A stretch of DNA of 64,000 nucleotides from Flavobacteriaceae bacterium (GTDB lineage Bacteria > Bacteroidota > Bacteroidia > Flavobacteriales > Flavobacteriaceae): positions 194,429-258,428 of the forward strand of contig JANQNQ010000009.1 of the NCBI GenBank assembly GCA_028279515.1, written 5' to 3'. A program made the translations under genes and the position numbers. The notes under the pieces were generated by a model that was given only the letters and a program-made list of their open reading frames with translations, was not told the origin of the DNA and searched no databases. Positions 1 to 30,732 of the stretch are shown here, one piece after another (within the stretch, counting starts at the first letter, position 1; each line of letters begins with the position of its first letter).

Positions 1-610
1 TTCTAATGGAATTAGCGGTTTTTGCAAAAATTTCAATCAATTCTTGCTTAAGAAGATAGTTCCAAATTTGCCTGACAGTATCTGGACTTTCGTTTAAATT
101 TAGGATGTCGGAACTTGTTTTGCCTAAGTCGTTTTTGTTGTCGGATTCTTTAGACTGAATATTATCAACAACATCCTGTAGTGCCTTCCTTTTCTTAGAC
201 TCTTCATTAAACAGCTGCCTTAGACTTTCGAATTTCTCTTCCATCTTGTTGTACTCTTCAATTGTCACAACCGATTTTGGGTCTGTCAATTTGTAAACCA
301 ACGGTGTAAGCAAGTTCTTGTATAACCTAGTGATAAGCATACCAATGTTAATACATAGATATGTTACTAATAGTAGCACAATCGTCCAACCTGCATTTAC
401 AAGTATATCGACCCAAATATCATAACCTTGCAAGTATCCTGAAAAGGTCCGTATTTTACTATTCAGGTCCATGCCCACGTCAAAATGGAAGAGTGAAAAA
501 ATGGCCTCCCATTTGCGAATTACATAAACCAAGACATAAGTTCCTAGAAATGGGTTCTTGGTCTTTTCAAGGAGGCTGTCTTTAAGAGAATTTAGTGTGT
601 CAGGTAACAT
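1..610 (-). CDS. Hypothetical membrane protein. Partial: the start codon is at 610 and the ORF runs off the window at position 1.
   Basis: Manual reverse translation gives an open frame of >=203 codons with no stop, starting MLPDTLNSLKDS... Two hydrophobic segments are present. It is not in the ORF track because it is incomplete. Confidence 0.4.
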   Translation of the reverse strand, partial: MLPDTLNSLKDSLLEKTKNPFLGTYVLVYVIRKWEAIFSLFHFDVGMDLNSKIRTFSGYLQGYDIWVDILVNAGWTIVLLLVTYLCINIGMLITRLYKNLLTPLVYKLTDPKSVVTIEEYNKMEEKFESLRQLFNEESKKRKALQDVVDNIQSKESDNKNDLGKTSSDILNLNESPDTVRQIWNYLLKQELIEIFAKTANSIR

Positions 611-659
611 TCTACAATTTTACGTTTAATTGATTCGCTAAAAATGGGGAAATCCTCAA

Positions 660-1472
660 TCATTGATTAAAAAGATCATTCAACTCGGGATAATCAAATG
701 GCTCGATCGCCTCCGGGACATCGGTCGGGATCCTGGCATTGTTCACAGACTTCATTACTGGATGTGCTTGCAGACCTTGCGAGTATTCTGTCATCAGAGC
801 TTCCCTCACCATTTGGTCGGTGCTGCCATGATCTAAATAATCATAGAAGTATTCTGGATCCAAAATGCAAGGCTCACGACGATCATCTGGATCAGCCTTG
901 TTGTGGATTTCGGCCATGAAGTCACTCGCCGGTCTGGTCAATATCTTGAATGTATAGGTTTCGTCCCCATTTATGTTATAAATTCCAGCAAAATAGAACA
1001 GCTCATCCCTTTTTGGATATATGAGGTGCGGGTATTTATTGCCGTTGACCTCTTTTGACTCAAAGAAGCCCGATACCGGTATGATACATCGTCTATATCT
1101 TATGGCCTCTGCTGTCTTGTAGTAGTCAAATACATTCTCGGCCTGCGAATTCAGAGCATATCCACCAACCCTTCTCCAATAGTTCGGGACATCGACCACT
1201 TCCTGCAGACGGTGGTCCTCATATAGGTGGTATTCTGCAGGTCTCTCCACAAAGCCCCAAAGCATAGGTAACATGATGTGGTCATTGCCCTGTGGGATGC
1301 ATTGGTGGATGGGATGGTCAAAGCCAAAATTATGATAGCCTATCTTATAGGTAGCAGGTTCTTGCATTGTGGCACCAGAAAGCCGTTCCATTTCCTTCTG
1401 GGTCCTGGCAGTTGAAGTACTGTAACACATAGTATTTAATCGATCTGACCACAATTTAAGAATTATTATCAT
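660..1472 (-). CDS. SOS-response-associated peptidase (SRAP/DUF159-like). The likely true start is the Met-Cys at 1430.
   Basis: An internal MCYSTS... start places the catalytic Cys at position 2, as SRAP requires. The ATG is at 1428-1430 on the minus strand. Size and C-terminal conservation fit an abasic-site crosslinking protein. Confidence 0.5.
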   Translation of the reverse strand: MIIILKLWSDRLNTMCYSTSTARTQKEMERLSGATMQEPATYKIGYHNFGFDHPIHQCIPQGNDHIMLPMLWGFVERPAEYHLYEDHRLQEVVDVPNYWRRVGGYALNSQAENVFDYYKTAEAIRYRRCIIPVSGFFESKEVNGNKYPHLIYPKRDELFYFAGIYNINGDETYTFKILTRPASDFMAEIHNKADPDDRREPCILDPEYFYDYLDHGSTDQMVREALMTEYSQGLQAHPVMKSVNNARIPTDVPEAIEPFDYPELNDLFNQ

Positions 1473-1954
1473 GCCAAGGAAGCTCTCACCATGTCCATGA
1501 CGAGATTGTGAGGATCCTTCCTTTTGGTCAGGTCCTTCAGTTCATTGTCAAATTCGATGATATCGTTGTGCAAACGATATGGGAAGTCGGTGTTCTTTAT
1601 CCGTTCTCTAGCTAACCTAAGTCCCTTCAAAATGGCCTCGACAGCCATTATCCTGTTCATTCTCAAATGTTGCTCAGATGAGATCATTGGTACGCTTCCC
1701 TCCGCTATCAACTTATTGAAATAGTTAGTATGTCGTAGATCCCACTTGTTCTTTGGATCCCATTGATTGTTTGCCATGATTTTTTCCCGCAAATTTACCA
1801 TTGACATCAAAATCATGGCAAGTTTTTGATCGAGCCATTCCCGTAGTTGCAGTAAATCGTGCGCACGATTTTGATGCGGAGCATCATGAAAAATGGTCAA
1901 AACTTGGATCCTTGAGATCCGAGTTTTTCCTTCCCTGAACCTTTCGATCTTCAT
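1469..1954 (-). CDS. Hypothetical prophage protein
   Basis: 161-aa ORF whose start/stop overlaps the downstream SRAP gene. No recognisable motif. Confidence 0.4.
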   Translation of the reverse strand: MKIERFREGKTRISRIQVLTIFHDAPHQNRAHDLLQLREWLDQKLAMILMSMVNLREKIMANNQWDPKNKWDLRHTNYFNKLIAEGSVPMISSEQHLRMNRIMAVEAILKGLRLARERIKNTDFPYRLHNDIIEFDNELKDLTKRKDPHNLVMDMVRASLA

Positions 1955-2075
1955 CCTTTCCCCTTGTAACCCCTTTATATATTGAGGTTTTAAGATAGTG
2001 CTTTCATGCGGAAGCCTATATAACTATATATATTCTTTCATTTTTTTATAACACTTGTGTAAAATAGGGTTTGAA

Positions 2076-2280
2076 ACCGTGCTTTTGTGCGCATCGGCTC
2101 TCAGACCCCATGAATACTGGAAAAATGGCCGCACGATTTTAGCACGATTGCGCACGATTGCCACAAAGTGCTTAAAAATGTTAAATCGTGCTAAACTGTG
2201 CGCAAATCGTGCGCTTGTATAGCGCTGTAAATCAGTTAAATAGGTGTGATTTTTTGACCTTTCGCACGATAGCACGGTTC
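2076..2280. promoter_or_regulatory. Iteron/operator-like array of GCACGAT(T) motifs in a divergent intergenic region
   Basis: GCACGATT occurs at 2131, 2142 and 2152 (10-11 bp phasing). AATCGTGC occurs at 2184 and 2205. GCACGAT/GCACGGT occur at 2264/2272 and ACCGTGC at 2076. There is one more copy at 1863 inside the upstream ORF. Confidence 0.55.
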
Positions 2281-2380
2281 AAAAGACGATTTTAGCCGAG
2301 CCCTGTTGTCATTTCTTTTTTTCAATTCCTGAAATCGAAAAAAACCGGACCTGCGGTGCAGCTTTTTTGTCCTTTTTAGG

Positions 2381-2863
2381 ATGTACATGCAAATCTATCA
2401 TTGTAGCATGCAGTTCAACAAGAATTCAGACCTGGTGATAGACGTGTGCAAGGTACTTGCGAGATCGGTCGATGGTTCCGAGCTGGTCAACATGACCGAG
2501 ATCTATGCGACGCCCAGCAAGATGCAGCTCACTTGCAACCAGACGATGACTCCCGCAGGAAAGCTGTTCAGGACAACGGTCACCATGACCTACCCAGGGA
2601 TATCCGATGACGCTTTCGACAGATTATCATCACTTGGTAATGACCAATATCAGGTATTGGTCAAGGTCAGCAACGGTAAATACTTTGAGGTAGGCAGCAA
2701 CAAGTTTCCCATGGACATCTCATCCAACTACAATGACGCAACCGGCTTCCAGTTACGATTCACGAATCAGAGCCCTTTGGCCATCAATAGCATCCCTACC
2801 TACACGGATGCAGATATAACTGACGAGAACTTCGATTACAACTTTGACCTAAACCTTTCATGA
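2381..2863 (+). CDS. Hypothetical prophage protein
   Basis: 160-aa ORF, first gene of the plus-strand block after the divergent control region. Confidence 0.4.
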   Translation: MYMQIYHCSMQFNKNSDLVIDVCKVLARSVDGSELVNMTEIYATPSKMQLTCNQTMTPAGKLFRTTVTMTYPGISDDAFDRLSSLGNDQYQVLVKVSNGKYFEVGSNKFPMDISSNYNDATGFQLRFTNQSPLAINSIPTYTDADITDENFDYNFDLNLS

Positions 2864-2864: not shown

Positions 2865-4490
2865 ATGTCCATAGATAACTCATTCAAGATCACCTACCCT
2901 CAAAAGACCAACGACCCGACGGATGCAGCATCGATAAGCAAGTTCTTTGCACTTGAGGCCAACGAGATCAAGGAAAAGTTCAATCGATTGGTGACCGAGC
3001 TTATCGGTCTGTTCGGGAACACGAATGCGACTCCGATGGTCGGCGTGTATACTTCGCTTTCTCAATTGAGTGCAGCGTTCCCAACAGGTGCCGGTGGTGC
3101 CTATGCCATCATCGACCCGGGTACGGGATCAGACCCGCAGATCGCGATATACGATACAAACGATAACCAATGGGTCATTGCAGGTGCAAGCGAGCTCATA
3201 ATCTATAGCGCGAACCAAGCCGCATTACCGCCAACTGGAACAGAAAAGAGACTCTATCTCACACTTGACAACTATAGCATCTTCGTATGGCACGATAGCG
3301 ATTGGCATCAGGTAGGAGGAGGGTCAGTGAACCTCTATTCGCAAGAATCAGGGAACACTATCCAATTGAATGGAGCACAATCGAAGGGCTATGGACAGGA
3401 CACACCACTCACAGGTCCATTGGTGATATCAGCAGCGGCTGCAACACCAGGACACGAGGCCTATGTCAACCATAAAGCACCCAATCTAGGCCCTATCGAC
3501 AGTCAGGGGCTCAAGTTATTGACCTATAGCGGTGAGTACGTCCCGAATGTTCTCAATCAGATCTGGTTCAGGTGCCTGAACGATGCCAAGGACATCGGGG
3601 TCAAGTATACACAACCTGATGATGGAGAGCTTTCGGAGTTCTACCTGGACGATGTGAACACCCTGTTCTACATGGGTATCAAGAAGTTGACCTCTGGCGG
3701 TCTGAGCACTGCCTTCAAGCTACATGGTAATTCCGACGAGATACAGTGGAATTCCAATAACGAAATAGCAGCGGACAGCGTCGTGGGAGGAACCACCGTC
3801 GGTGCGCTCACCGGGAACCAACTTGTCGAACGAGGGTATAACACCGCTGGGAACCTTAACACGGACTACCTGCAATCTGGCACATCGGCAATCGCTCCAT
3901 TGATCGTTAGTGGTGGCACCCTGGTCACCAAGAACGGAAAGGTGGCCTTGGACTTCAGCGGAGGGTTCAAGTATATGGAAAAAAGTTTGATATCAGGTAT
4001 GAACGAGTCAGAAGACTACACTTTTTCTGTCGTTTTAGCACCGACAATCGCAGATGGGTCGGATTGGGGACCTATCATGTGTTCAAGGCAGAACAGTGTT
4101 AGTGGAACATCACGTATAGAAATGCGTAGTGACATGCGTGATGCAGCCAACTTAGTGATATTGCAGAACGACTCCAATACTGTGTTTGTGGCCAGTCAAC
4201 CAACGGCACCTAGCAATCCGAACCTCTTCAACACGCTAGATACACGTGTGATCACCTATGTTAAGGCCGGTAAGAAAATAGATGCTTATCTCAATGGGGT
4301 ATTCCAAAGCACCTTTACCTATACAGGAACGTTCCCGAACGAAACATTTGTGATTGGAAGAAGACAGGACTCGAGGGAACTCAATGCCCTCGTACACATG
4401 GTCAAGGTCGTCGGCGAGGCCATTACGGCGGATACCGTCCTCAAATGGGCACAAAGAGATGCAATCGACTGTAACTTCACACTCAATTAG
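2865..4490 (+). CDS. Putative phage receptor-binding/tail fiber-like protein with a C-terminal LamG/concanavalin-like jelly-roll
   Basis: 541 aa. Composition is Gly/Thr/Ser-rich. The C-terminus (TFSVVLAPT...NGKKIDAYLNGV...FVIGRRQD) has the LamG-like pattern. ATGA overlap with the preceding ORF. Confidence 0.4.
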   Translation: MSIDNSFKITYPQKTNDPTDAASISKFFALEANEIKEKFNRLVTELIGLFGNTNATPMVGVYTSLSQLSAAFPTGAGGAYAIIDPGTGSDPQIAIYDTNDNQWVIAGASELIIYSANQAALPPTGTEKRLYLTLDNYSIFVWHDSDWHQVGGGSVNLYSQESGNTIQLNGAQSKGYGQDTPLTGPLVISAAAATPGHEAYVNHKAPNLGPIDSQGLKLLTYSGEYVPNVLNQIWFRCLNDAKDIGVKYTQPDDGELSEFYLDDVNTLFYMGIKKLTSGGLSTAFKLHGNSDEIQWNSNNEIAADSVVGGTTVGALTGNQLVERGYNTAGNLNTDYLQSGTSAIAPLIVSGGTLVTKNGKVALDFSGGFKYMEKSLISGMNESEDYTFSVVLAPTIADGSDWGPIMCSRQNSVSGTSRIEMRSDMRDAANLVILQNDSNTVFVASQPTAPSNPNLFNTLDTRVITYVKAGKKIDAYLNGVFQSTFTYTGTFPNETFVIGRRQDSRELNALVHMVKVVGEAITADTVLKWAQRDAIDCNFTLN

Positions 4491-4492: not shown

Positions 4493-5782
4493 ATGTCATT
4501 CTTCGATATCATAGACGCTGGAGCAACGGTACAGGACCCGACCGATGTTAACGTTTGGCATACAGGGTCGATTGAGATCCCTGACCTTTTACAGATCGGA
4601 TGGCAGGGCGGGCTCATAGATCCGAATGGACTCTACTTCAACGGAAAGACCTATGCAACAGGGGTCCAGACCAACAACATCGCAGGCCAGAGGAACAGGG
4701 TGGTGATCGTTCAATACGACGGAGCCACCCCCACGGTCCCGCCAATATATGCCTTTGTCGGGAGTGGTACGGACGGCCAGGACACGTTGAACCATCCTCG
4801 GCCTGCGATGTTGATCGACCCATCAGGCTACATTTGGATCTATCAGACCACCATCCACCAAACCCCCATTAGGGTCTGGAAAAGCGACAACCCTGAGGAC
4901 ATCAGCTCCTTCACATTGGTACATACGATCCCAGAGATCAATGGACTCAACTACGGATATCCGAAACCCATCCTGCAGCCTGATGGCAGGGTGTTCATTC
5001 TGGTGAGAAGCAACGACGGTGTGGGGCCAGCAGACCTTTACAACACCTTGATATTGAAGTCCACTGACGCGACACAGACCTCTTGGACGGCTCAGCCGAT
5101 CGCCGATGCAGAGCATGAGACCACGGGTAACAGGCACTACCACAATGTCTTCAGGAAATACGGCACCAACACGGTACAGATGTTCGGTACCAGTTTTCGT
5201 GCATCAGGGACCAACACATATTGGAAGCATGCCATCACCAAGACCACACTCGGTAACTATACGACCTACAGCAATGCTGCAGGGACATTCTCTAAGGACG
5301 TCGACCTTAACGGTATGATCAATGACAGCGAGATGAACGGTAATTTCGTTGTCAATTCTGCAAGCCAAAGCACCATCGAACTCGCTAGGATGGCAGGTAT
5401 CCAAGTGGACGATACCGCTTACACGTATGTCCTGAAAGAGGGCGCGTTCGGGGAGTTCATGAAGGTATCCAATACAGGTGTCGTCACCAAGGCCGATGTC
5501 CAGATCCCAAATGTGCTTACCGAGAACCAAGCGAACCTCTGTCAGCTTTGGTACAATGGCAATGACATCATCGGGGCGATCAGAAGGACGATCGGGCCGA
5601 AGACCTTCGATACCATATTCCGACTTGACAAGACCACCTTGGCCCAGACCACGATCGAGGACGTCCCACCTCGAATTGAGATGCCTCAGAACTACGACCA
5701 GATCCCGGTTGGGGGATGGTATATGCAACATCTCACCTTGAACGGTGTATTTCATTGGAAGGCAACTCAGAAGATTTATTAA
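4493..5782 (+). CDS. Putative phage structural protein (BNR/sialidase-like beta-propeller suspected)
   Basis: 429 aa. BNR-like S-x-D-x-x-x-T-S-W segment (STDATQTSW). Translationally coupled to the upstream fiber-like gene. Confidence 0.35.
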   Translation: MSFFDIIDAGATVQDPTDVNVWHTGSIEIPDLLQIGWQGGLIDPNGLYFNGKTYATGVQTNNIAGQRNRVVIVQYDGATPTVPPIYAFVGSGTDGQDTLNHPRPAMLIDPSGYIWIYQTTIHQTPIRVWKSDNPEDISSFTLVHTIPEINGLNYGYPKPILQPDGRVFILVRSNDGVGPADLYNTLILKSTDATQTSWTAQPIADAEHETTGNRHYHNVFRKYGTNTVQMFGTSFRASGTNTYWKHAITKTTLGNYTTYSNAAGTFSKDVDLNGMINDSEMNGNFVVNSASQSTIELARMAGIQVDDTAYTYVLKEGAFGEFMKVSNTGVVTKADVQIPNVLTENQANLCQLWYNGNDIIGAIRRTIGPKTFDTIFRLDKTTLAQTTIEDVPPRIEMPQNYDQIPVGGWYMQHLTLNGVFHWKATQKIY

Positions 5783-5794: not shown

Positions 5795-6133
5795 ATGGAA
5801 GAACTACTCACCAATTTAGGAATCAAGATCGTCTATGTTATAGGCAGTATCTGCGGTTCGGTCGTTTCGTTAATATTTGCCAAGAAGGTAAGTTATACTA
5901 AGGCCGTCATTCACTTCCTTGGAGGCTTTATGAGCGCCCTGTTCCTAACCGACCTTATCATAAAATTGATGCCCTTTTTGGAGACCACACCAGGAGCTGC
6001 AGGATTCCTTACCGGATTCTGCTCAATGGGTGTACTCGAGGGAATATTCTGGGTGACCCAAAGGTTCTCAAAGAATCCTATCGAGACAATAAAACAAATT
6101 AAAAACTTAAAAGAAGATTCAGATGACAGTTAA
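5795..6133 (+). CDS. Putative holin (small multi-TM protein)
   Basis: 112 aa with 2-3 hydrophobic helices and a charged C-terminus. It is the first gene of the lysis cassette upstream of the amidase. Confidence 0.5.
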   Translation: MEELLTNLGIKIVYVIGSICGSVVSLIFAKKVSYTKAVIHFLGGFMSALFLTDLIIKLMPFLETTPGAAGFLTGFCSMGVLEGIFWVTQRFSKNPIETIKQIKNLKEDSDDS

Positions 6134-6470
6134 CATTTTGATTTGGATCCTGCTCATGGGAAAGGCATTGTTCGTGCTTTTCTTCTTGTCAGGAGTTAAC
6201 AAGCTACCCAATGACATGTTCGGAAAGGTCGTACTTCGAACGCTCCTATGGGTCTACATTGGTGCAACCGTTGCACTATCATTGAAACAAGGGGAACCTC
6301 TGGTCCTGTTGGTGTATTCGATGGCCACCTTCTCCGTGTTGGCATATGCCATCATATTCCATCTGGTGGTCATCTTCCCGGATAACGGGATCCAAGTACC
6401 TAAAAACAAGGTGGTGACCTGGGCCGCTAGGATATTCGGCATCAAACCCAAACAACCCTCCAACGGATGA
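6123..6470 (+). CDS. Small membrane protein (holin/antiholin-like)
   Basis: 115 aa with 3-4 TM segments. Overlaps the neighbouring genes inside the lysis cassette. Confidence 0.4.
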   Translation: MTVNILIWILLMGKALFVLFFLSGVNKLPNDMFGKVVLRTLLWVYIGATVALSLKQGEPLVLLVYSMATFSVLAYAIIFHLVVIFPDNGIQVPKNKVVTWAARIFGIKPKQPSNG

Positions 6471-6718
6471 TACGTGCATTTGTCATACTATTGATGTCGT
6501 TTTTACTGGTCAACTGCTCGATTAACTTGCCTCGTAAGGATGTGGCCTTTGTCTATGATACGCAGATGAACCTGTTGGCCACTTCCGAACATGACAAACT
6601 TCAAAGAACGTTGAACAGATTGGGACTTCCCATGTACAGGGTGCAACGCTGGCGCGATGGCCGATGGGAGGAATGCATGATCGTAATGGTAGACAAGAAT
6701 GAGAACAGTAGTAATTGA
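6467..6718 (+). CDS. Small putative lipoprotein/signal-anchored protein of the lysis cassette
   Basis: 83 aa. N-terminal hydrophobic segment ending LLVNC. Overlaps the amidase start. Confidence 0.35.
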   Translation: MIRAFVILLMSFLLVNCSINLPRKDVAFVYDTQMNLLATSEHDKLQRTLNRLGLPMYRVQRWRDGRWEECMIVMVDKNENSSN

Positions 6719-7307
6719 TCCAGGACACGGAGGTATTGACAGAAATGGCCTCTACACGACAGCACCGAACAAGATGTTCCGATTCCCAGACGGAACGACG
6801 CTATATGAGGGAGTGATAAACAGACAGGTTGCTGGTCTGCTTTATCACTTATTGGATACCTATCCGAACATCAGGCCCGTATTCACGGTAAATCCTCATG
6901 ACCCACGTGACATCAGCCTCCGCCAAAGAGTGAAGGTCGCGAATTCATATCATGACAGCATCCTAATATCCATCCATCACAATGCCGGTGGCGGTAGCGG
7001 GGCAGAGATCTTCACGAATCCTGGTCAGACCAGTAGTGATAGATTGGCCACCATGATCTTTGACCAACTTAGCCCTATATATTCAAAGTATTCATTGCCT
7101 ATGAGGCCGGACCATTCCGATGGTGACCCAGACAAGGAATCGGCGTTCTATGTGCTTCGAAAGACCAAAGGGGTTGCCGTGCTTTTGGAGTACGGATTCT
7201 TCGATAGTGAACGGGACCGAAAGCTGATCACCGATGCCAACTTCCAAAAGAAGGTGGCATATGCGACCTTTCAGGCAATAAAGAAATTCGTTGAACTTCA
7301 ACGCTAG
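6699..7307 (+). CDS. N-acetylmuramoyl-L-alanine amidase (Amidase_3 family), the phage endolysin
   Basis: VVIDPGHGG and SIHHNAGGG motifs are typical of zinc amidase_3. 202 aa. Confidence 0.85.
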   Translation: MRTVVIDPGHGGIDRNGLYTTAPNKMFRFPDGTTLYEGVINRQVAGLLYHLLDTYPNIRPVFTVNPHDPRDISLRQRVKVANSYHDSILISIHHNAGGGSGAEIFTNPGQTSSDRLATMIFDQLSPIYSKYSLPMRPDHSDGDPDKESAFYVLRKTKGVAVLLEYGFFDSERDRKLITDANFQKKVAYATFQAIKKFVELQR

Positions 7308-7315
7308 ATCGTACC

Positions 7316-7501
7316 ATGGACAACAATTTTGATCAGACCATCCAAGAGATCATCAACGAACTTCCAATATCATTCGTACAATCTGTAATGGAGGAAACTG
7401 ATGTTGGCAAACTCAGGCAGAAGCTGCAAAGTCATAGATGCTACAACCGTAGGAGGCTGGTCAAGGCAAGGATAGAAAAACTAAATTATCTCGTAACATG
7501 A
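7316..7501 (+). CDS. Hypothetical small protein
   Basis: 61-aa ORF between the amidase and the spanin-like gene. Overlaps the next start. Confidence 0.3.
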   Translation: MDNNFDQTIQEIINELPISFVQSVMEETDVGKLRQKLQSHRCYNRRRLVKARIEKLNYLVT

Positions 7502-21906: not shown

Positions 21907-24900
21907 TGCCAAGAAAGATATCAGACGAAACACTGAAGTTCAATGTCGTTATCAATGGCAACGAGGGGCAGCGTGAGTACAATAAACTTACGCGGGCCAA
22001 CAAGAAACTTTTGGAAGCAAATGAAGACTTAGAGAAACAGGCAAAAAAGCTAAGACGCTCTAACAAGGCAAATGCTGATGAGTTGGCAGCACTTGAAAAA
22101 CAGATCCAAGAGAACAATGCTACGATAAAGGAGAATTCTGATCGAATGAGCGACCTCACAAAGGAGATCGGGCTGAGTAACCTCACCATGAAGCAGCTCA
22201 AAAAGGAAGCAAGAGACCTGCAGCGAACCTTGGATAATTTAGATCCAAATGACAACAATTTTAAAGAATTATCGCAGCAACTTGTCCAGGTCAAGAATAG
22301 AATGACCGAACTGAAAGCTGAAACGAATGCTACCATCGATTCGTTGGAAGACAATTTGGGAACTTTAGAGAATTTTGGAGCCGGAATCGGCAACCTGTTC
22401 GTTGGTTTCAAAAGGGGTGATGCAAAACAGGTCCAAGACGGGCTGAGAGGAATTGCATCGGGATTCCATGGGGCTCGCAAGGCGGCTTTGGCATTCATAT
22501 CAACCCCTGTTGGTGCGTTTCTGGCCATTGTGGCTGGAATTGGAGCAATAGCCAGGGAATTTGTAATCTACAATGAGTCTATCCGTGAATCCGCATTGTT
22601 GACAGAGCAGTTGACCGGATCGACAGGTCAGGCGGCCGACGATATACGTGTAAGGGCACAAGCGCTCACCGATACATTTGGAGGGGATTTCAATGAGAAT
22701 TTGAAAGATGCAAAGGTGTTGGTAAATGAATTTGGTGTCAGTTATGAAAAGGCATTCGATATCATTGAAGAAGGTCTTATCAGAGGTGGAAAGGCTAATG
22801 ATGAGTTCCTTGAATCCATCGAGGAGTACAGTACCTTTTTCTCCAATGCCGGATTCAGCGCCAATGAGTTCAGAAAGATACTCAACACAGGTGTCGATCT
22901 CAGTATCTATAAGGACAAGCTACCCGATGCCATCAAGGAATTTGACCTATCGATCCGGGAACAGACCGACAGCACTAAGGAAGCATTGATCAATGCCTAT
23001 GGTAAGACATTCACCGATGCATTGCTGAAACGTGTCAGAGAAGGAAAGATCACTACAAAGGAAGCATTGGCCGAGATCGCTAAAGAGTCCCAAAGAACCG
23101 GGACGACCATACAGCAGAATGCCCAATTGACGGCTGACCTGTTTAGGGGAGCGGGCGAGGACGCGGGTGGAGCTCTTAAGATATTCGAAGCGGTCAACAT
23201 TGCCTTGGGCGATCAGGAAAGGGCATTGACGCCATTGCAGGAGCAATTGCAACGGGTAGCGGACGCGAACGAAGAATTGGCAAAGGCACAAGATGACGCG
23301 TTGAAATCTGATGACTATATAGAGTTCAGCAACAATGTCTCACTTTTCTGGACGAAGGTAAAGACGCTTTTCTTCAACGGTGTCTCGTTCATTTTGACCA
23401 AATTCAATGAGGTTCAGAACTTCACTTTGAAGTTCTTCTTCCAGACCATTGCGACCATCAAAGTGTTGCCAACCGTTGTAAGAGAAGCCTTCTCATCAAT
23501 GGTCACCGAGGCAGGTGAGGCCATAAAAAGTCTTTTCAGTTTCGGGCAGATATTCGAAAGACTGTTGAATTTGGACTTTGAAGGTGCCAAGGAAGCGTTC
23601 AAGGATTACACTGCCAACGTCAAAAGTGAATTTGGTGATGTTGGAAATGTTGTCGGTGAGGCGATCGATAAGATCCAAGCTGTGAGAAAGGCGGTTGGTG
23701 ATGCCGTAGATGCAGATCTCGCTAGGCAACGCGAAGGAGCAGTGCTAGCTTCGGGTATAGAAGATCAGGAAACAAACAATGGCAGTGGAAATGAGAATGA
23801 CAAGGAAGATGAACTCTCAGCCGAGGACAAGCGCAGGCTAGAGTCAAGAAAACGTCTTTATGAGATGTTGGATGCCTTGGAGGCGGAACGCGAGCTGATA
23901 GAGAAGCAAAAGCAAGTCGATGATATAACAGCGAAGCAGCTAGAAGAAGAGGCCGCATTGCAAGAGAAGTTTGCAAAGTTGGAGGCAGATGCCAATGGTG
24001 AGACCGAATTATTGGCAGGGTTTGAAGAAGAAAAGCAGTTTAGACTCCAGGAGATCCGGGACAAGTATGATAAACTGAGAAGTGAGCGCGATGCGACCAG
24101 AAAGAAAGAATTTCTCGAAAAAGAACAGAAATTCAAAGGAAAGCTGGCCGAGGCAGAGGAAAACCTACAGAAAGCTCGTGCAGCTGCTTTGAACAGTGGC
24201 CTAAATGCATTGAGAAGCTTCTTTGGAGAGTCCAGCAAGATCGGTAAGGCCATTTTTCTACTGCAGCAAGGCATGGCCGTCAATGAGGTGCTTATTACTA
24301 CCGCTAAATCAATTGCCCAAGCCAAGGCGGCAGACGCTGCAATCCCAGCCGTTATTCCTCCTGGATTTATAAACCCTTTCAAAGTAATCTCAACATCAAC
24401 AATGTTAAAGAATGTGGCTGCTGCCAAATTCACGGCTGCATCCCAGATCGCATCCATACTATCTGCAACGGTAGAAGGCTTCGAAGATGGCCTTTATCCT
24501 GTAACAAGAACCGATGGGAGAAGATTCAAGGCAAGTATAGGTGGTGACCCAAGAACTCAGATCGTTGATAGACCTACCCTTTTCAACGGACCGTTTTTGG
24601 CAGGGGAGGCCGGAAGGTCACAACCGGAGATGATCATAGACGGTAACACGTTCAATCGATTGGATCCAAGAGTGATCGACTATATACTTCAAACGGCAGG
24701 AAAGGTCAGAGGCTTCCAATCTGGGTTTACTTCTGAAAGGGCTCAGTCGGTCGCTGATGTAACGACCCCAGAGCCAGACAACGAAACTAGCATGACAGAT
24801 ATCATGATCGCGACATTCGACCTTTTGGTGGATCTCAAAGAGAATGGGATTGATGCTCGCTCGATTATCGGGGATGACAAGATCCAAGAATTGGATGAAA

Positions 24901-24944
24901 GGAAAGAACAACTCGAAACCACCAGAGACAAAGCAAAACGATAA
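21906..24944 (+). CDS. Tail tape measure protein
   Basis: 1012 aa, the longest gene in the cluster. It has extensive coiled-coil segments, hydrophobic central patches and a Gly/Ala-rich region. Confidence 0.7.
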   Translation: MPRKISDETLKFNVVINGNEGQREYNKLTRANKKLLEANEDLEKQAKKLRRSNKANADELAALEKQIQENNATIKENSDRMSDLTKEIGLSNLTMKQLKKEARDLQRTLDNLDPNDNNFKELSQQLVQVKNRMTELKAETNATIDSLEDNLGTLENFGAGIGNLFVGFKRGDAKQVQDGLRGIASGFHGARKAALAFISTPVGAFLAIVAGIGAIAREFVIYNESIRESALLTEQLTGSTGQAADDIRVRAQALTDTFGGDFNENLKDAKVLVNEFGVSYEKAFDIIEEGLIRGGKANDEFLESIEEYSTFFSNAGFSANEFRKILNTGVDLSIYKDKLPDAIKEFDLSIREQTDSTKEALINAYGKTFTDALLKRVREGKITTKEALAEIAKESQRTGTTIQQNAQLTADLFRGAGEDAGGALKIFEAVNIALGDQERALTPLQEQLQRVADANEELAKAQDDALKSDDYIEFSNNVSLFWTKVKTLFFNGVSFILTKFNEVQNFTLKFFFQTIATIKVLPTVVREAFSSMVTEAGEAIKSLFSFGQIFERLLNLDFEGAKEAFKDYTANVKSEFGDVGNVVGEAIDKIQAVRKAVGDAVDADLARQREGAVLASGIEDQETNNGSGNENDKEDELSAEDKRRLESRKRLYEMLDALEAERELIEKQKQVDDITAKQLEEEAALQEKFAKLEADANGETELLAGFEEEKQFRLQEIRDKYDKLRSERDATRKKEFLEKEQKFKGKLAEAEENLQKARAAALNSGLNALRSFFGESSKIGKAIFLLQQGMAVNEVLITTAKSIAQAKAADAAIPAVIPPGFINPFKVISTSTMLKNVAAAKFTAASQIASILSATVEGFEDGLYPVTRTDGRRFKASIGGDPRTQIVDRPTLFNGPFLAGEAGRSQPEMIIDGNTFNRLDPRVIDYILQTAGKVRGFQSGFTSERAQSVADVTTPEPDNETSMTDIMIATFDLLVDLKENGIDARSIIGDDKIQELDERKEQLETTRDKAKR

Positions 24945-24946: not shown

Positions 24947-26866
24947 ATGGCCACACCAAGCGTATTCAACTTCACGTATACAAAGTACACCTCTGAACCC
25001 CAATTGCAGTCGGTGGTGATCGACACAAGGGAATACACTCTTTATTTTGAAGACAACTTCCCAAATTGGGTTCGATTTCTGAATGCAGTTCCAAGACCCA
25101 ATGTGAACAATTCCATTTGGGACGCTAGCATCGGCCTCAACGGGTCTGTGTTGGACAATATGCCGCCAGGAACACATACAGCGAACATATCACTCACCGC
25201 ATATGTGTCCGACAACCAAGGTGGCGGAGGATTCGGAAGTGGTGATCTCATTGATGGTGTTGACACATTTACGGTGAACGTCACGATTGTTGATAATATC
25301 CTTCTCGACCTTGATCCGACCAATTTGTTCTTTACATATGAGATAGGGGGCTCACTTCCTTCAGACCAATCCATACAGGTATCTGCCAGTACGAATTGGT
25401 CCTTGGCCGCTTCCGAATCTTGGGTCAACGTAGGCAGTTCTACGGGAAGTACGTCTGAGCTTGTGACAATAGGGGTCAGCCCCTCAAGTTTGACACCTGG
25501 AGTCTATAATGCAACACTTACTCTTACTGATGGGGTGTCTGTCAAAACTGCCAATGTAGAGCTCATTGTGACAAATCCAACTATGGGTGAGTTCCTTTTG
25601 GTGACGCCCGAGGTTGTTGAGTTGGTTGAACAATTGGGAGAATTACCATTACAGTCCAAAGACCTTCAGATCAATAGTTCACAAAGTTGGGACGCGACAT
25701 TGACCGAGACATGGATGCAGTTATCAGCCAGTAGCGGGACTGCAGGTATTACAACGATTCAGGTGTCTGCAGACAGCCAATCTTTGGGATTGGGGGTCTA
25801 CAACGGGCAGATACGTTTCGACGCTAATGGTATCATCAAGGTCGTTAATGTGGTACTTATAATTCTGGAACTCGGGTTGGATGGCATTGAGAGCGATACG
25901 ACCTATTTCATAGATGATCGTAACTATCTAAGTTCGGGAAGCGCGTTGCCCAACACATTCCTAAATGCACGGATAATTGACAACTATTTGGGAAATGCGT
26001 ATCAGTTGCAGAAATCGGCACCATTTTTTAACGGCAATGCCAAGATCCTAATGGGGCAGGAAGGTAATCACATCATAAAGTCGATTCCGGTGACCGATAA
26101 CCTTATCACTTCCGCATTCATTCCTGTCACTCCAATGATCCAATCTTTGGAGGCCTATGAGAAGAGTCGATTCGACACGACCGAAACGTTGATCGGCAAT
26201 TTGAGCGGTGTAAGATTCTTTAAAGGGAAGACCCCAATAGTTGCCAACAGGGCCACGTACATGCCACAATTGGTCTATATGACCGCTGAATCCAAGATCG
26301 CATTGGCCGGATTCTCGGATTTGGTACCGTCGACGATCTCAATTGCTGGCAGCGTTACAGATACCATCGCCGTTTCCTTTTCGGGTACCAACTATGTGTA
26401 TCAATGCATAGTTGATCTTAGTAACTATCAGTTATCACCAGGGGACCAACTTAGCATAGGGTTTGCCGGTCAATCAGTGGATGTGATCATCATCGATAGG
26501 ACACCACAGCTAACTCAGCTTGCTTTTGAGAACGAATGGAACATATATGAGCTTTTCGATCTCAGAGGCTTCCTATCGATCGACAGTATACCGAAGGAAG
26601 TTACCACTGAACGCTTCATTGAGGGAGAGGAGATCACAAGGATACTCGAGTCGAAGGAGATCGATGAATTTACTTTGAACACTGGTCATATCTTTTCTAA
26701 CGAAGAATCTGAGTGGATATCGAGATTGAACAGTTCGAAGAGGATCTATTTACACATAAAAGGAAATTGGGTAGAGGTGGTCAGGCGTACACGAAAGATC
26801 GAGAAGTTCAAGACTCGAAAACACTTCAGAAGCTATAACCTAAAATTTAGAAAGGCAGTTGTATGA
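24947..26866 (+). CDS. Putative distal tail/tail fiber protein with Ig-like (BACON-like) domains
   Basis: 639 aa. Repeated Ser/Thr-rich beta-sandwich-like segments (GVYNATLTLTDG, GVYNGQIRFD). Confidence 0.4.
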   Translation: MATPSVFNFTYTKYTSEPQLQSVVIDTREYTLYFEDNFPNWVRFLNAVPRPNVNNSIWDASIGLNGSVLDNMPPGTHTANISLTAYVSDNQGGGGFGSGDLIDGVDTFTVNVTIVDNILLDLDPTNLFFTYEIGGSLPSDQSIQVSASTNWSLAASESWVNVGSSTGSTSELVTIGVSPSSLTPGVYNATLTLTDGVSVKTANVELIVTNPTMGEFLLVTPEVVELVEQLGELPLQSKDLQINSSQSWDATLTETWMQLSASSGTAGITTIQVSADSQSLGLGVYNGQIRFDANGIIKVVNVVLIILELGLDGIESDTTYFIDDRNYLSSGSALPNTFLNARIIDNYLGNAYQLQKSAPFFNGNAKILMGQEGNHIIKSIPVTDNLITSAFIPVTPMIQSLEAYEKSRFDTTETLIGNLSGVRFFKGKTPIVANRATYMPQLVYMTAESKIALAGFSDLVPSTISIAGSVTDTIAVSFSGTNYVYQCIVDLSNYQLSPGDQLSIGFAGQSVDVIIIDRTPQLTQLAFENEWNIYELFDLRGFLSIDSIPKEVTTERFIEGEEITRILESKEIDEFTLNTGHIFSNEESEWISRLNSSKRIYLHIKGNWVEVVRRTRKIEKFKTRKHFRSYNLKFRKAVV

Positions 26867-28632
26867 TAGCGTTTCAGAACTCGGATAAATTTATAGACCT
26901 GACCAGGTTTCGGCTAACCTTCAATGAGGAGAATTCTGCATTTATCGATGGAATCATAAAGAATTACAGCTTTCCCTTCTCGCTAAGACTTTACGAGGAA
27001 CTTGCGATCGGACTAGGATTCTCAAACGTGGAGGATGTGACTGGTGAACCAAGACAGATAGATGGACTGTTGATAATCGATGACGATTTTCACGATGCCT
27101 ATATAGAGATCAACCGGCGGGTAGGTGACCGTTTGGAAATGACACTATACTACGGGAAAGAATTGCTCGAGGTCTATGATCTAAATTTGAGACAACTACC
27201 ATGGCCAAGCATCATAAGCCTAAATTTCAACGACCACGCAAAGGATCTCATCAACAAGACATGGCCAGAGACGACACACATCTTCCCGATGATATTCAGG
27301 GAACAGTTGAAACAGGAAGTTAACTACGACGCATTTCAATATTTCGTTAATCATTTCGATGGCACCAACTACCTTCAAAATGATATAGACACCTCAGTGA
27401 CCCCGAATGTGATCAACAACAGAAATGTAATGGCTCCAGCTCCATTCGTTATGGCCATCTTCAAGCAGATCTATGCCTATGAGGGAAAGGAGGTAATCGG
27501 TGATTTCATCGATCATCCCATTTTGAGAAAGATGGTGCTGCAACCTAAAGCGTTCATGGAAAATTTCGATAGTACCACATTCCAGCAATGGAGCTTTGAT
27601 TACCCAACAGAACAGAACAACTTCGGGAATGTTTACGAGAGATCTATAACTGTGACCTTGAAGGGGACCTATAGATTGAAGGCGAAGATAAACATGAACT
27701 CTTCAATTGCGAATACGTTCTCATTCGATGTTGCACTGATAAGACCTGGTGGACAGATAGACACGGTTTACTCTGCAAGTGGATTCAACCAGAATATAAA
27801 CATCGATGAAGAGATCGAGATCAACATAAACGAGGACAATCAATACCAAGATCTCCGGGTGAGGATATCGATGACGCAGATCGCAATATCTATTGAGCCA
27901 TTCAATTCGTTCACGTTCCAATTCTGGGAGGGTGGACTGAATGTGTTCCCGCCAAGCTATACTTTGGCTGATTTTGTGCCGGATATGAAGGTGCGTGAAT
28001 TCGTGAACCAATTCAAGAATCTATTCAACTTGGACATCGACATCAACGAGAGCTTTGTCTCAATTGGGTTCATGGAAGAAACACTCCGGTCAATGACATA
28101 TGATGATCTCACCGAGTTCCAGGAAAAGAACCCCAAGATCAGGTATGACAGGAACAATATATATCAACTCAAGTTGGCAGACGGAACTAAGATATCAGTT
28201 GACAGCCAAGGGCTCAATTACTCTCTGGACTTCGATAGGCGAGCCGATGTTGAAGATATTGAGGTTGAAGGGGCGTTCTCAGAGATCGAGGAGAACGAAT
28301 CCATTTTGACGGCAAAACACCTGGCTGAACCATTTGAAATTTCAATCGCAATATACGATGGTCCTTTAGATGATATCCCTTTATTGACAGACCAGGTTGA
28401 TGGGACAAAATTAAACCTGTCCTACATTTACGATTACTTCTATCGATGGTGGCTAGACTTTAGAACGAGAAGCATCAATTATGTGACCAAATTCAAGACA
28501 CACATCACAAGAGATATCGATTTAAAGAAGGGGACATTCATATACAACAGAAAGCATCTGGTCCGTAAGGTTAGAAAGAGAAGGGTGGAGCAGGAGTTCT
28601 GGGAGTATGAGGTTGAGAGTGAGACTTTATAG
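26863..28632 (+). CDS. Putative tail tip/baseplate protein
   Basis: 589 aa, the last structural gene, overlapping the previous gene. Confidence 0.35.
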   Translation: MIAFQNSDKFIDLTRFRLTFNEENSAFIDGIIKNYSFPFSLRLYEELAIGLGFSNVEDVTGEPRQIDGLLIIDDDFHDAYIEINRRVGDRLEMTLYYGKELLEVYDLNLRQLPWPSIISLNFNDHAKDLINKTWPETTHIFPMIFREQLKQEVNYDAFQYFVNHFDGTNYLQNDIDTSVTPNVINNRNVMAPAPFVMAIFKQIYAYEGKEVIGDFIDHPILRKMVLQPKAFMENFDSTTFQQWSFDYPTEQNNFGNVYERSITVTLKGTYRLKAKINMNSSIANTFSFDVALIRPGGQIDTVYSASGFNQNINIDEEIEININEDNQYQDLRVRISMTQIAISIEPFNSFTFQFWEGGLNVFPPSYTLADFVPDMKVREFVNQFKNLFNLDIDINESFVSIGFMEETLRSMTYDDLTEFQEKNPKIRYDRNNIYQLKLADGTKISVDSQGLNYSLDFDRRADVEDIEVEGAFSEIEENESILTAKHLAEPFEISIAIYDGPLDDIPLLTDQVDGTKLNLSYIYDYFYRWWLDFRTRSINYVTKFKTHITRDIDLKKGTFIYNRKHLVRKVRKRRVEQEFWEYEVESETL

Positions 28633-28760: not shown

Positions 28761-29141
28761 ATGGGCTTACATCTTAATGCAAATTTAGACCTTGGGGGGA
28801 AGAAATTCCACATCGAACTGGCATTGGTTCAGTTCAAAGAAGGCGATGTGTTTATTATTTATTCACCAGCCTTAGACCTATCAGGTTCCGGGTATTCTGA
28901 AAAAGAGGCAAGAGATTCATTTTCAATTGCTCTTGAAGAATTTGTTAGATATACTAATAATAAGAAAACCCTGAATAAAGTCTTGAAAGACCTTGGTTGG
29001 CAAGTACTTGGTTCTAATAAGAAGCCAAAGTTTACCCCACCGAAAGATTCTGATTTGATTGCATCCAACCCCTTGTACAGTGATATTATTAATAGTAAGA
29101 ATTACAGCGTATCAAGGGAAGATATAGCTATTCCGGTTTAA
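28761..29141 (+). CDS. HicB-like antitoxin-fold protein
   Basis: The segment FIIYSPALDLSGSGYSEKEARDSFSIALEEFVRY matches the HicB/UPF0150 core. It has its own TATATTTG box at 28734-28741. Confidence 0.45.
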   Translation: MGLHLNANLDLGGKKFHIELALVQFKEGDVFIIYSPALDLSGSGYSEKEARDSFSIALEEFVRYTNNKKTLNKVLKDLGWQVLGSNKKPKFTPPKDSDLIASNPLYSDIINSKNYSVSREDIAIPV

Positions 29142-29146
29142 TTTAA

Positions 29147-29377
29147 ATGTCTACCAAGCATCTACGAAACATACCGCTAAAACTTTATAGGGATTTTCTC
29201 GATGATAAAGGATGTAAATGCACAAGGACCAAAGGAGGTCATGAGCACTGGACAAGAAGTGACCTAGATAGGCCGATAACCGTGCAAACTCATGTCGACC
29301 CTGTCCCAGAGTTTATTATTAGGCAAGGTCTTCGGCAGTTAGGTGTTTCGAAAAAGGAATTTCTTGACTGGATTTAA
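29147..29377 (+). CDS. HicA-like mRNA-interferase toxin
   Basis: 76 aa. The KGGHEHWTR...ITVQTH...IIRQGLRQLGV pattern matches the HicA/YcfA family. Confidence 0.55.
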   Translation: MSTKHLRNIPLKLYRDFLDDKGCKCTRTKGGHEHWTRSDLDRPITVQTHVDPVPEFIIRQGLRQLGVSKKEFLDWI

Positions 29378-30564
29378 ATGTCATCAAGATTGTTGATGTC
29401 TTGCTCCATAAGACCGTCAACGATATGAACGTACACCATTGTCTGTTTTATCTCACTGTGACCAAGCAAGCGTTGTAATTTCACCACATTGCCACCTTTA
29501 AGTAAATAGTTGGTAGCAAAAGTATGTCTGCTTACATGAAAGGTCAGTTTCTGCTTAATTCCGCAGACCTTAGCAATCTCTTTTAACATCCTATTTATAT
29601 GAACGCCAGTAAATTCTCCATTGAATAAAGGGTCCTGCTTGTTCAGGAACGATCTGGCCTTGCTAGTCAACGGTATGCGCTGTAATTTATAGGTCTTCTT
29701 GGAGGTCAAAACTAAATGGTCGCCGATAATGTTGTCCTCATTGATTCTCAGCGAGTCACTTATTCTTATACCTGTCCAACAACTAAAGAGGAACCTTTTT
29801 AGTACCGCTAGGTGAGTAGGATTAACAAAATCACTTTCGGAATATTTGACCAACCGGGAAACTTCTTCTGGCATTAGGAAGATCGGCCGTGGTTTGAAGG
29901 CCTCTACCTTGATCTTGTCGTATGTGATACCTGACATTATTCCTTGATCATTGGCTATGTGCAGGAATTTTTTGAAGGTCTTCATCATGCTTGTAATTGT
30001 ATTTGGTGCGTTCTTGAGCTCGTGCTTCATATAGGCTCGAAGATCTCGTATAAAATCATGGTCGATCTCGTGGAAGGGGATGCTTTCCCTGTAATTACGC
30101 AATTTGGTAAATACTGACCTCTGCTGTCTATAGGTCTTTGGGTCAAGGCGGTCTCTTTCCTTGGAAAGTGCATTCTCGAAGAACTTGATAAAATCGAGAT
30201 GGGCTGTTGGATTCTCAAGCTCAAAGATCAGTTGCTTCAGTGAAAGCATGCGCTTTGATAGCCTGTATGTTACTTCCACCCGATTGATGTCGGCCAACTT
30301 TTGCTCAATTATCAAGTTATGGTCCACATAATTTTCGGCTCCCTTCCTTACCCGGCCCTCTACATCATCAAAGTCTTTTGGGCGCACGTAGATGTCCAAG
30401 TTCAATCTCATTAGTTTCTTCTGGTAGAGCTGTATGTAGACCATACACTTTCCGTCCTTTCTGATGTGGTCCTTTCTTAGTCGGACTTTGAGTCTAATTT
30501 TACCGATCATGATTTCTGGTAAATTCTCTGGTAAAAAAACTGCTGTTTCACGCGTATACCCCAT
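29374..30564 (-). CDS. Tyrosine-type site-specific integrase (the likely start is the ATG at 30510: MIGKIRLKV...)
   Basis: The C-terminal catalytic region HVSRHTFATNYLL...LLGHSEIKQTMVYVHI carries the R..H..R..Y signature. The N-terminal arm domain is typical of Bacteroidetes integrases. Confidence 0.9.
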   Translation of the reverse strand: MGYTRETAVFLPENLPEIMIGKIRLKVRLRKDHIRKDGKCMVYIQLYQKKLMRLNLDIYVRPKDFDDVEGRVRKGAENYVDHNLIIEQKLADINRVEVTYRLSKRMLSLKQLIFELENPTAHLDFIKFFENALSKERDRLDPKTYRQQRSVFTKLRNYRESIPFHEIDHDFIRDLRAYMKHELKNAPNTITSMMKTFKKFLHIANDQGIMSGITYDKIKVEAFKPRPIFLMPEEVSRLVKYSESDFVNPTHLAVLKRFLFSCWTGIRISDSLRINEDNIIGDHLVLTSKKTYKLQRIPLTSKARSFLNKQDPLFNGEFTGVHINRMLKEIAKVCGIKQKLTFHVSRHTFATNYLLKGGNVVKLQRLLGHSEIKQTMVYVHIVDGLMEQDINNLDDI

Positions 30565-30602
30565 GGCTTGTCGTTTTTTTGAATGCCCCCTAAATGCAGG
30601 CA

Positions 30603-30639
30603 GGCCGCGACTTTTAGAAATTTTCTAAAAATCGCGGCC
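30603..30639. repeat. Near-perfect 18-bp inverted repeat between the integrase and the tRNA-like gene (att/Int-binding candidate)
   Basis: GGCCGCGACTTTTAGAAA t TTTCTAAAAATCGCGGCC, with one mismatch. Confidence 0.5.
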
Positions 30640-30658
30640 GTTATTAAACCTAGTTTTG

Positions 30659-30732
30659 TGACCTCGGCAGGATTCAAACCTGCAACCTCTTGAGCCGTAA
30701 TCAAGTGCACTATTCAGTTATGCTACGAGGCC
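30659..30732 (-). tRNA. tRNA-Arg(ACG)-like gene. It is atypical, lacking G18/G19 and C56.
   Basis: Manual cloverleaf: acceptor GGCCTCG/CGAGGTC (one G-U); D-stem GCAT/GTGC; anticodon stem CTTGA/TCAAG; loop TTACGGC; T-stem GCAGG/CCTGC; T-loop TTTGAAT. CCA is not encoded. Confidence 0.5.

Follow-up and report, generated by a model that had tools for sequence, protein, structure and literature searches.

With considerable confidence, we identify in the chromosome of a marine member of the Flavobacteriaceae a temperate prophage of siphovirus type that belongs to the Duneviridae lineage; the part seen here is its right-hand ~30.7 kb. This part occupies positions 1-30732 of a 64,000-nucleotide stretch of this genome (GenBank assembly GCA_028279515.1, contig JANQNQ010000009.1, positions 194,429 to 258,428 of the forward strand), which we call the window and to which all coordinates refer. 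The full prophage is probably ~40 kb in size, and its late half and integration module are apparently intact. A first-pass annotation of the same DNA had proposed a siphovirus-like temperate prophage in a Bacteroidota host, with an integrase beside a tRNA-like gene and a left end outside the window, and this proposal holds. Profile searches, predicted folds and synteny also confirmed nearly all of its gene calls: an SRAP (SOS-response-associated peptidase) gene, a control region, a holin-amidase-spanin cassette, an S49 protease, a capsid gene ahead of the terminase, a 1012-amino-acid (aa) tape measure, tail tip proteins and a tyrosine integrase.

The phage late, lysis and integration genes form one tightly packed block (2381-30564). 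Plus-strand open reading frames (ORFs) are dense over 2381-29377, with short or overlapping junctions, and are followed by the integrase ORF on the minus strand. The AT skew is positive over 2-29 kb and negative from ~29 kb, and the G+C content is 0.44-0.50 inside the block versus 0.41-0.44 to its right.

The family placement follows the gene content of this block. When the 709-aa product of one ORF, the major capsid protein (MCP), was compared with phage records by tblastn, 32 phages matched, the best being Cellulophaga phage Ingeline; the others include Flavobacterium phage laban6-1, the 6H-type phages 2A, 1H and 23T, and some Porphyromonas phages. Ingeline, laban6-1 and 2A represent the Duneviridae genera Ingelinevirus, Labanvirus and Unahavirus in the ICTV taxonomy. 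Twenty-four window ORFs (2381-30564) are collinear with Ingeline at 27-57% amino-acid identity, with the portal at 57%, the large terminase (TerL) at 55%, the MCP at 52%, the tape measure at 45% (over 1024 aligned columns) and the integrase at 43%; 11-13 ORFs are also common to laban6-1 and 2A, in the same order and at 22-42% identity. Homologues of the protease, MCP, a 275-aa protein, a 212-aa protein, TerL, portal, adaptor, a 300-aa protein, tape measure, tail tip and integrase occur in all three genera. The Duneviridae core has been defined as nine genes, among which the MCP, portal, adaptor and five hypothetical proteins are named (Bartlau et al. 2021, PMC8776804); the prophage agrees with this core in the genes named by function, the MCP, portal and adaptor. 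Its late ORFs are full length by comparison with Ingeline (709 versus 719 aa for the MCP, 1012 versus 1010 for the tape measure, 457 versus 447 for the portal and 396 versus 398 for the integrase).

This collinearity extends to cultured, plaque-forming phages (PMC8776804), which argues against a domesticated phage-derived particle system, similar to a gene transfer agent or a tailocin, that the host has retained. Such a system would fit the fact that only structural, lysis and packaging genes, and no replication genes, are visible in the window. However, the block ends in an integrase at a tRNA attachment (att) site and encodes capsid and terminase together with a complete set of lysis genes. 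Closely similar elements are also sporadic and do not form a conserved host locus, most genomes that are syntenic at the tRNA lacking one. We consider domestication extremely unlikely, and treat the element as a prophage. The head and packaging genes of this prophage are as follows.

9213-10121, plus strand: S49 (SppA-type) head maturation protease (Peptidase_S49, E = 1.1e-17; phrog_53, 3.2e-37; 49% identity to Ingeline gp42).
10144-12273, plus strand: MCP, 709 aa (HK97 fold by AlphaFold2 and Foldseek).
12328-13155, plus strand: conserved protein of 275 aa, present in all Duneviridae compared; a candidate for capsid decoration or an auxiliary role.
13278-15279, plus strand: three ORFs before TerL, of 347, 108 and 212 aa, conserved in Ingeline, laban6-1 and 2A.
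15218-16942, plus strand: TerL, 574 aa (AlphaFold2 fold).
17474-18847, plus strand: portal, 457 aa, homologous to Ingeline gp02, which is annotated 'portal protein (VirFam)'.

The predicted structure of the 709-aa protein (predicted local distance difference test score, pLDDT, 78) identifies it as an HK97-fold capsid protein. A Foldseek comparison with the PDB returned 333 matches at E <= 1e-3. Almost all were phage capsid proteins, and a few were encapsulin shells, which have this fold as well; the matches include phiRSA1 (7oz4, 6.8e-11), P4, HK97 and T5, at target-normalised TM-scores of 0.5-0.6. In the model, an N-terminal helical region of ~150 aa, scaffold- or delta-like by position, precedes the HK97 core (~150-510) and two C-terminal beta domains (~530-709). 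The MCP has 65 homologues. Two homologues (P0155 and P0171) match PF25692 Phage_depo_C, a depolymerase C-terminal beta sandwich, in the first of the two beta domains. The last domain is paralogous to part of the neighbouring 275-aa protein, residues 184-256 of which are 42% identical to MCP residues 627-696 (E = 4e-10). Downstream of each gene is a strong terminator-like hairpin (12282-12300 and 13187-13208).

TerL was also recognized from its predicted fold. The 574-aa protein has no match in Pfam, PHROGs or PDB sequences, the libraries run on it. With 35 homologues as input, AlphaFold2 gave a model (pLDDT 82.8) that matches large terminases over both domains (D6E 5oe8, 8.7e-14; Sf6 4idh; T4 gp17; P74-26), and the protein contains GRGTSKT and GDEAK motifs. 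The model thus identifies a large terminase with ASCE ATPase and RNase-H-like nuclease domains. Nearly all source records name this protein 'hypothetical protein', and the predicted fold alone identifies it.

For the portal, no direct profile match was obtained, and 8 of its 95 remote homologues (exhaustive phmmer) match PF04860 Phage_portal, at best with E = 4.9e-11. PDB sequence and profile searches with TerL, the MCP, the portal, the 300-aa protein (including its family profile) and the HicA and HicB candidates described below found nothing significant. The 347-, 108- and 212-aa ORFs have no functional family match, although the last belongs to phrog_20504 (3.3e-29); the small terminase is probably among the three. 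GenBank capsid annotations have been reported to be wrong for Duneviridae representatives (Evseev et al., PMC9855967), and the Ingeline record agrees with that report, as its S49 protease bears the note 'major capsid protein (VirFam)'.

The right end of the prophage lies at a host tRNA gene.

29374-30564, minus strand: tyrosine integrase, Bacteroidota type (Arm-DNA-bind_5, Phage_int_SAM_5 and Phage_integrase).
30565-30654, unstranded: phage-side arm separating integrase and tRNA; it contains a 37-nucleotide inverted repeat at 30603-30639.
30655-30675, unstranded: predicted att core, the tRNA 3' end from T-loop to discriminator base plus AAA.
30658/30659-30732, minus strand: tRNA-Arg(ACG), host integration target (ARAGORN and Rfam, 58.9 bits versus a gathering score of 29).

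The integrase has the catalytic, SAM-like and arm-binding domains of tyrosine recombinases (PF00589, 5.4e-18; PF13102, 1.6e-17; PF17293, 1.8e-7), with an HxxR motif and a C-terminal tyrosine context, and is homologous to Ingeline gp11. Its start is 93 bp from the 3' end of the tRNA. One tRNA gene lies here, and 'tRNA-like', the term used in the first-pass annotation, was imprecise: it is a genuine tRNA-Arg(ACG) gene by both methods, and its sequence recurs unchanged at the syntenic locus of Aquimarina and Tenacibaculum. The host gene on its other side (31326-32675) has homologues at 62-80% identity in 70 Flavobacteriaceae loci, including Flagellimonas, Aquimarina, Tenacibaculum and Maribacter. 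The same tRNA-Arg(ACG) follows in ~50 of the 70, with an identical sequence in many. Because the host gene and the tRNA are syntenic, and the genes farther right are ordinary chromosomal ones (GlnII, purM, CsgG), the right junction of the prophage is placed at the tRNA.

Several observations make the last ~20 nucleotides of the tRNA the likely crossover. Ingeline (GAATCCCTTCGCGGTCACAAA) and laban6-1 (GAATCCTGGCGCGATCACAAA) carry a tRNA-3'-like segment of ~20 nucleotides (GAATCC...TCACAAA) ~90-120 nucleotides upstream of the integrase gene, corresponding in position to the tRNA end in the window. IMGVR_UViG_2890587071_000001 has a related prophage, with an integrase and a TerL each 50% identical, inserted at an identical tRNA-Arg(ACG) and oriented in the same way. 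Other integrases or remnants, unrelated or more distant, follow the tRNA-Arg in five further genomes (L015, L017, L018, L053 and L071). Nine genomes (L002, L005, L012, L016, L028, L032, L043, L056 and L060) have one or two additional copies of the 17-mer AATCCTGCCGAGGTCAC from the tRNA 3' end, at 30 bp to 5.6 kb downstream of the tRNA-Arg itself. The att core is therefore probably at ~30655-30675 (TTTGTGACCTCGGCAGGATTC), by analogy with these relatives. Hairpins comparable to that at 30603-30639 occupy the equivalent place, between the tRNA-like segment and the integrase gene, in Ingeline and in the same-tRNA prophage (L159). No second copy of the tRNA 3' end occurs anywhere in the 64-kb window, consistent with a left end outside it. 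The tRNA-Arg(ACG) gene is a recurrent integration hot spot across the Flavobacteriaceae.

By the mechanism that we infer from the relatives, the host tRNA-Arg(ACG) gene would have been recombined at its 3' end, by the Bacteroidota-type tyrosine integrase, with a phage attP that holds a copy of roughly the last 20 nucleotides of the tRNA. The phage-derived copy would now complete the tRNA, and the displaced host copy would be expected at the far, unseen end. The prophage may be complete, inducible and able to excise.

Other features were observed at this tRNA. In Tenacibaculum halocynthiae (L071, 11988-15820), an integrase 47% identical to that of the window immediately follows this tRNA-Arg, and SRAP is encoded ~2 kb beyond; Duneviridae structural genes were not detected in the ~8 kb of that locus past the integrase, and it may be a different element with a related integrase that likewise carries SRAP. 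On the 5' side of the tRNA-Arg, the window has a 125-bp tandem repeat (30711-30987; 2.2 copies, 96% match). Each extra unit contains a degenerate tRNA copy that has the first 22 nucleotides unchanged, a 19-nucleotide D-loop insertion and ACG kept in the anticodon arm; these copies are without T arm and 3' acceptor strand, and are called by neither ARAGORN nor Rfam. The spacer between host gene and tRNA is ~590 bp here versus ~190 bp in most relatives. Repeated tRNA-Arg 5' 22-mers also occur upstream of the gene in other Flavobacteriaceae (L041, 12137-12790; L031, 12806 and 15876), including three copies spaced 315 bp apart in a Maribacter metagenome-assembled genome. Such 5' fragments are not accounted for by 3'-end integration, because this would duplicate 3' fragments.

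At the left edge of the window, the visible part of the prophage starts with genes on the minus strand.

2-610, minus strand: partial ORF off the left window edge, phage accessory gene, 203 aa seen (phrog_13369, E = 3.8e-5).
660-1430, minus strand: SRAP (YedK-like), an accessory 'moron' (Pfam PF02586, 2.1e-28; phrog_1599, 6.8e-26).
1469-1954, minus strand: orphan ORF, 161 aa, containing the perfect palindrome AATCGTGCGCACGATT at 1855-1870.
1955-2380, unstranded: control region upstream of the late operon, with a GCACGATT array and inverted repeats I1, I2 and I4.

Homologues of the left-edge ORF stand directly after TerL in three related phage contigs (L149, 6e-15; L093, 1.6e-11; laban6-1, L154, 2e-4). 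Because of these homologues and the PHROG match, we conclude, short of proof, that phage DNA extends to position 1 and that the early module lies farther left. A metagenome scan found no relatives of this ORF. The SRAP retains the N-terminal Met-Cys, and an identical 256-aa product is present in the protein collection. Nothing matching the 161-aa ORF was found in Pfam, PHROGs, NCBIfam, phage records or metagenome contigs, and neither this ORF nor SRAP nor the DNA of 1-2400 has a Duneviridae match among phage records.

The control region is a ~430-bp non-coding stretch before the first late gene, and the 83-aa ORF listed within it (2024-2275) is probably spurious. As a sequence feature it is real: seven of the eight copies of GCACGATT in the window fall within 358 bp (1855-2212), against 1.8 copies expected in the whole 64 kb. 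Three are direct copies (2131-2159) and two are inverted (2184-2212), and the motif also forms the perfect 16-bp palindrome inside the neighbouring 161-aa ORF. In Ingeline the corresponding interval, from gp28 to gp29, holds a repeat array of its own, unlike this one. We read 1955-2380 as a putative regulatory region of the late operon and the repeats as a candidate operator array.

The left end also bears on whether the element is a defective remnant, in which the early (lysogeny and replication) module has been deleted and the minus-strand genes of 1-2380 are host or unrelated DNA beside a stranded late region. In Ingeline and in an Abyssalbus prophage, the homologue of the first late gene, gp29, is preceded by early genes on the same strand, whereas here it is preceded by minus-strand genes without Duneviridae counterpart; G+C at 1-2000 is 0.41, which is host-like; and the window contains no att repeat. 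Yet the left-edge ORF has relatives in phage contigs, opposite-strand moron blocks are usual in Duneviridae (laban6-1 gp07-08 and gp22-27), and the repeat-rich control region is located where Ingeline has one. All 29 late ORFs are intact, which would be unexpected in an old remnant. The possibility that the SRAP gene is the host's native one was rejected: it is just 24-28% identical to SRAPs near the tRNA in other genomes, and thus not their orthologue, in comparison with 77-80% for the true host neighbour. We therefore judge a remnant improbable, and favour a prophage that continues to the left of the window.

Some points weigh against that reading. The early module (~10 kb in relatives) is outside the window, as would be the second att copy; Ingeline's early region (gp12-gp28, also ~10 kb) has no counterpart in the window. 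Nothing in the relatives compared corresponds to the block at 660-2380, with SRAP and the 161-aa ORF. No excisionase was identified among the window ORFs, the major tail protein and the small terminase are without assignment, and the att core is placed by analogy only. Finally, the predicted HicAB-like moron is a candidate. The HicA-like gene (29147-29377) matches Pfam HicA_toxin at 2.2e-5 and 24.9 bits, below the 27-bit cut-off, and phrog_353 'toxin' at 5.9e-7. The HicB candidate (28761-29141) has no match in Pfam, PHROGs, NCBIfam or the PDB, and is proposed from its position and its homologues in two related phage contigs only.

Gene order in the prophage is that of its family. The prophage, Ingeline, laban6-1 and 2A share one circular order, which runs from integrase, att site, regulators (XRE and LuxR), primase and small genes through fibres, lysis genes and protease-MCP to the three conserved ORFs, TerL, portal, adaptor, tail genes, tape measure, tail tip and again the integrase. 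The protease and MCP genes precede the terminase, and the portal leads straight into the tail genes. The first-pass annotation had explained this as a circular permutation of the canonical map; no rotation of TerL, portal, protease, MCP and tail gives the observed order, and permutation was rejected. The order is the layout found in all three ICTV Duneviridae genera, and the comparison identifies it as a conserved rearrangement of this family.

The remaining genes of the late operon are the following.

2381-2863, plus strand: first late gene, Ingeline gp29 homologue (37% identity to Ingeline, 36% to the Abyssalbus prophage).
2865-4490, plus strand: probable receptor-binding or fibre protein, 541 aa (Pfam Laminin_G_3, 1.5e-6).
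4493-5782, plus strand: 429-aa protein, fibre-associated by position only (no homologue, no family match).
5795-8031, plus strand: lysis cassette, from holin to unimolecular spanin (u-spanin) candidate.
5795-6133, plus strand: holin (phrog_2359, 7.4e-10).
6123-6470, plus strand: second protein with multiple transmembrane segments.
6467-6718, plus strand: small lipoprotein, a member of the lysis cassette.
6699-7307, plus strand: N-acetylmuramoyl-L-alanine amidase (Amidase_3, 3.7e-31).
7498-8031, plus strand: u-spanin candidate, 177 aa (lipobox LSAC with Cys17; C-terminal transmembrane domain, 135-165).
8095-9059, plus strand: two small ORFs, of 121 aa (hydrophobic N-terminus) and 182 aa (Ingeline gp41 homologue; 28% identity to Ingeline and Abyssalbus).
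18844-21906, plus strand: head-tail connector and tail genes (homologues collinear in all relatives).
18844-19782, plus strand: adaptor (DUF6712), 43% identical to Ingeline gp03, 'adaptor protein (VirFam)'.
21906-24944, plus strand: tail tape measure, 1012 aa (PhageMin_Tail, 3e-8; several tape measure PHROGs).
24947-28632, plus strand: two tail tip proteins, one of 639 aa with BACON domains and one of 589 aa (matches over the pair: BACON_2, 8.6e-9; phrog_19879, 1e-25).
28761-29377, plus strand: moron of two genes, for a HicB-like candidate of 126 aa and a HicA-like toxin of 76 aa (homologues in L149 and L108).

As a query, the gp29-like protein matched only itself. The 541-aa protein combines a conserved N-terminal anchor of ~150 aa with a variable C-terminal concanavalin A-like lectin domain; its residues 5-152 are 36-42% identical to the proteins that follow the gp29 homologues of Ingeline and Abyssalbus, and its domains suggest a probable role in receptor binding. 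The spanin candidate is encoded 191 bp beyond the amidase, the two being separated by a single 61-aa ORF. Its lipobox cysteine, C-terminal transmembrane domain and place in the lysis cassette are those of a unimolecular spanin, and a u-spanin is also annotated in Ingeline (PMC8776804).

The adaptor is followed by ORFs of 114, 300, 151 and 129 aa, among which the major tail protein and its chaperone are probably to be sought. One of the two tail tip proteins is the viral BACON-domain protein (24947-26866), and both are 30-32% identical to Ingeline gp09 and gp10. Siphovirus morphology is suggested by the tape measure, by the absence of sheath genes and by electron microscopy of Ingeline, whose tail measures 132.9 +/- 19.3 nm (PMC8776804, Table 3). 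Because the Ingeline tape measure is nearly equal in length, a tail of ~130-150 nm is suggested here by analogy; the ~150 nm estimated earlier from the tape measure is reasonable and at the upper end of the plausible range.

Taken from left to right, the prophage would begin with lysogeny-control and replication genes as in the relatives (XRE and LuxR regulators, primase; ~10 kb), expected left of the window. An opposite-strand accessory cassette (left-edge ORF, SRAP and 161-aa orphan) and the control region with its arrayed GCACGATT sites follow in the window. A single long rightward late operon then runs from receptor binding through holin, amidase and u-spanin to the S49 protease, the HK97-fold capsid protein and its partner with a paralogous domain, and on through terminase, portal, adaptor, tail genes and tape measure to the BACON-domain tail tip, with the HicA-type moron and the leftward integrase at its end.

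Of the cultured relatives, Ingeline_1 (NC_062749) is similar in the fibre N-terminus, protease, MCP, 275-aa partner, TerL, portal, adaptor, tail genes, tape measure, BACON protein, tail tip, integrase and u-spanin, and in the tRNA-3'-like segment and hairpin before the integrase gene. It differs in lysis genes, distal fibre genes and morons, with a pectate lyase and a second recombinase where the prophage has SRAP and HicA, and in G+C content (32% versus 44-50%). Ingeline was isolated as a virion, whereas the prophage is integrated. The 2A/6H-type phages and laban6-1, the former including 6H, a well-known 45-kb prophage of F. psychrophilum (PMC4829187), share the module order. Their tape measures (~1420 aa by annotated coordinates) are much longer than that of the prophage, their endolysin is an Amidase_2 rather than an Amidase_3, their hosts are freshwater bacteria or fish pathogens, and their identity to the prophage is lower than Ingeline's. 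The same-tRNA prophage in IMGVR_UViG_2890587071_000001 (isolate genome; L086 and L159) has the same gene order (portal 50% and MCP 48% identical) and is a different species-level phage.

An HK97-fold capsid, terminase-portal packaging, a tape-measure tail, an arm-binding tyrosine integrase and reconstitution of a tRNA 3' end are features shared with classical tRNA-integrating siphoviruses of the HK97 and lambda type. Unlike these, the prophage has the protease and MCP genes upstream of terminase and portal, fibre and lysis genes upstream of the head genes, and an MCP to which a helical region is fused at the N-terminus and which has two beta domains at the C-terminus.

Nucleotide comparison (blastn) with Ingeline aligned four patches only, of 87-257 nucleotides and 66-72% identity. 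The genus threshold is at least 70% nucleotide intergenomic similarity (Bartlau et al., PMC8776804), and the element is therefore placed outside Ingelinevirus; on this comparison, it probably represents a new genus. The lineage had been described in the first-pass annotation as poorly sampled, which does not hold in view of the cultured phages (Ingeline, 6H-type and laban6-1), 541 TerL homologues in the protein collection (E <= 1e-5), many of them from named Flavobacteriaceae genomes, and at least 536 relatives in IMG/VR, whose isolate-genome prophages measure 37-64 kb. The Duneviridae lineage is poorly annotated rather than poorly sampled, most proteins matching PHROGs of unknown function.

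In the host DNA to the right of the prophage, two further loci were observed. The segment at 40920-47008 looks like a curli-type amyloid secretion locus of this Flavobacteriaceae genome: besides a curli-like repeat protein, whose CsgA/CsgB profile matches fall below cut-off, it encodes a beta-propeller protein and a 499-aa CsgG-like protein. Also encoded, at 33010-35700, is a membrane protein of 896 aa in which BlaR1-type M56 and M23 peptidase domains occur together with a low-complexity linker rich in Pro, Glu and Thr and, at the C-terminus, a Plug-like segment.

The prophage contains nothing that challenges present understanding, and its value is mainly one of annotation: it adds one more Duneviridae-type prophage, probably new at the genus level, to a marine Flavobacteriaceae genome. 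Its capsid protein and TerL were identified at the level of the fold, where sequence profiles miss them in Duneviridae and GenBank records mislabel them or leave them unnamed. The only mildly unusual points are shared across the family: a capsid protein decorated with extra domains and accompanied by a partner with a paralogous domain, a module order that departs from the canonical one, and a terminase that current profile libraries do not see. We raise tentatively, as a rather unlikely idea, that the C-terminal domains of the MCP and the 275-aa protein together form a glycan-binding display on the capsid surface, in the manner of Hoc or Ig-like domains. If this were true, the display could tether virions to algal-polysaccharide particles or to the host capsule, an adaptation specific to particle-associated flavobacterial phages.

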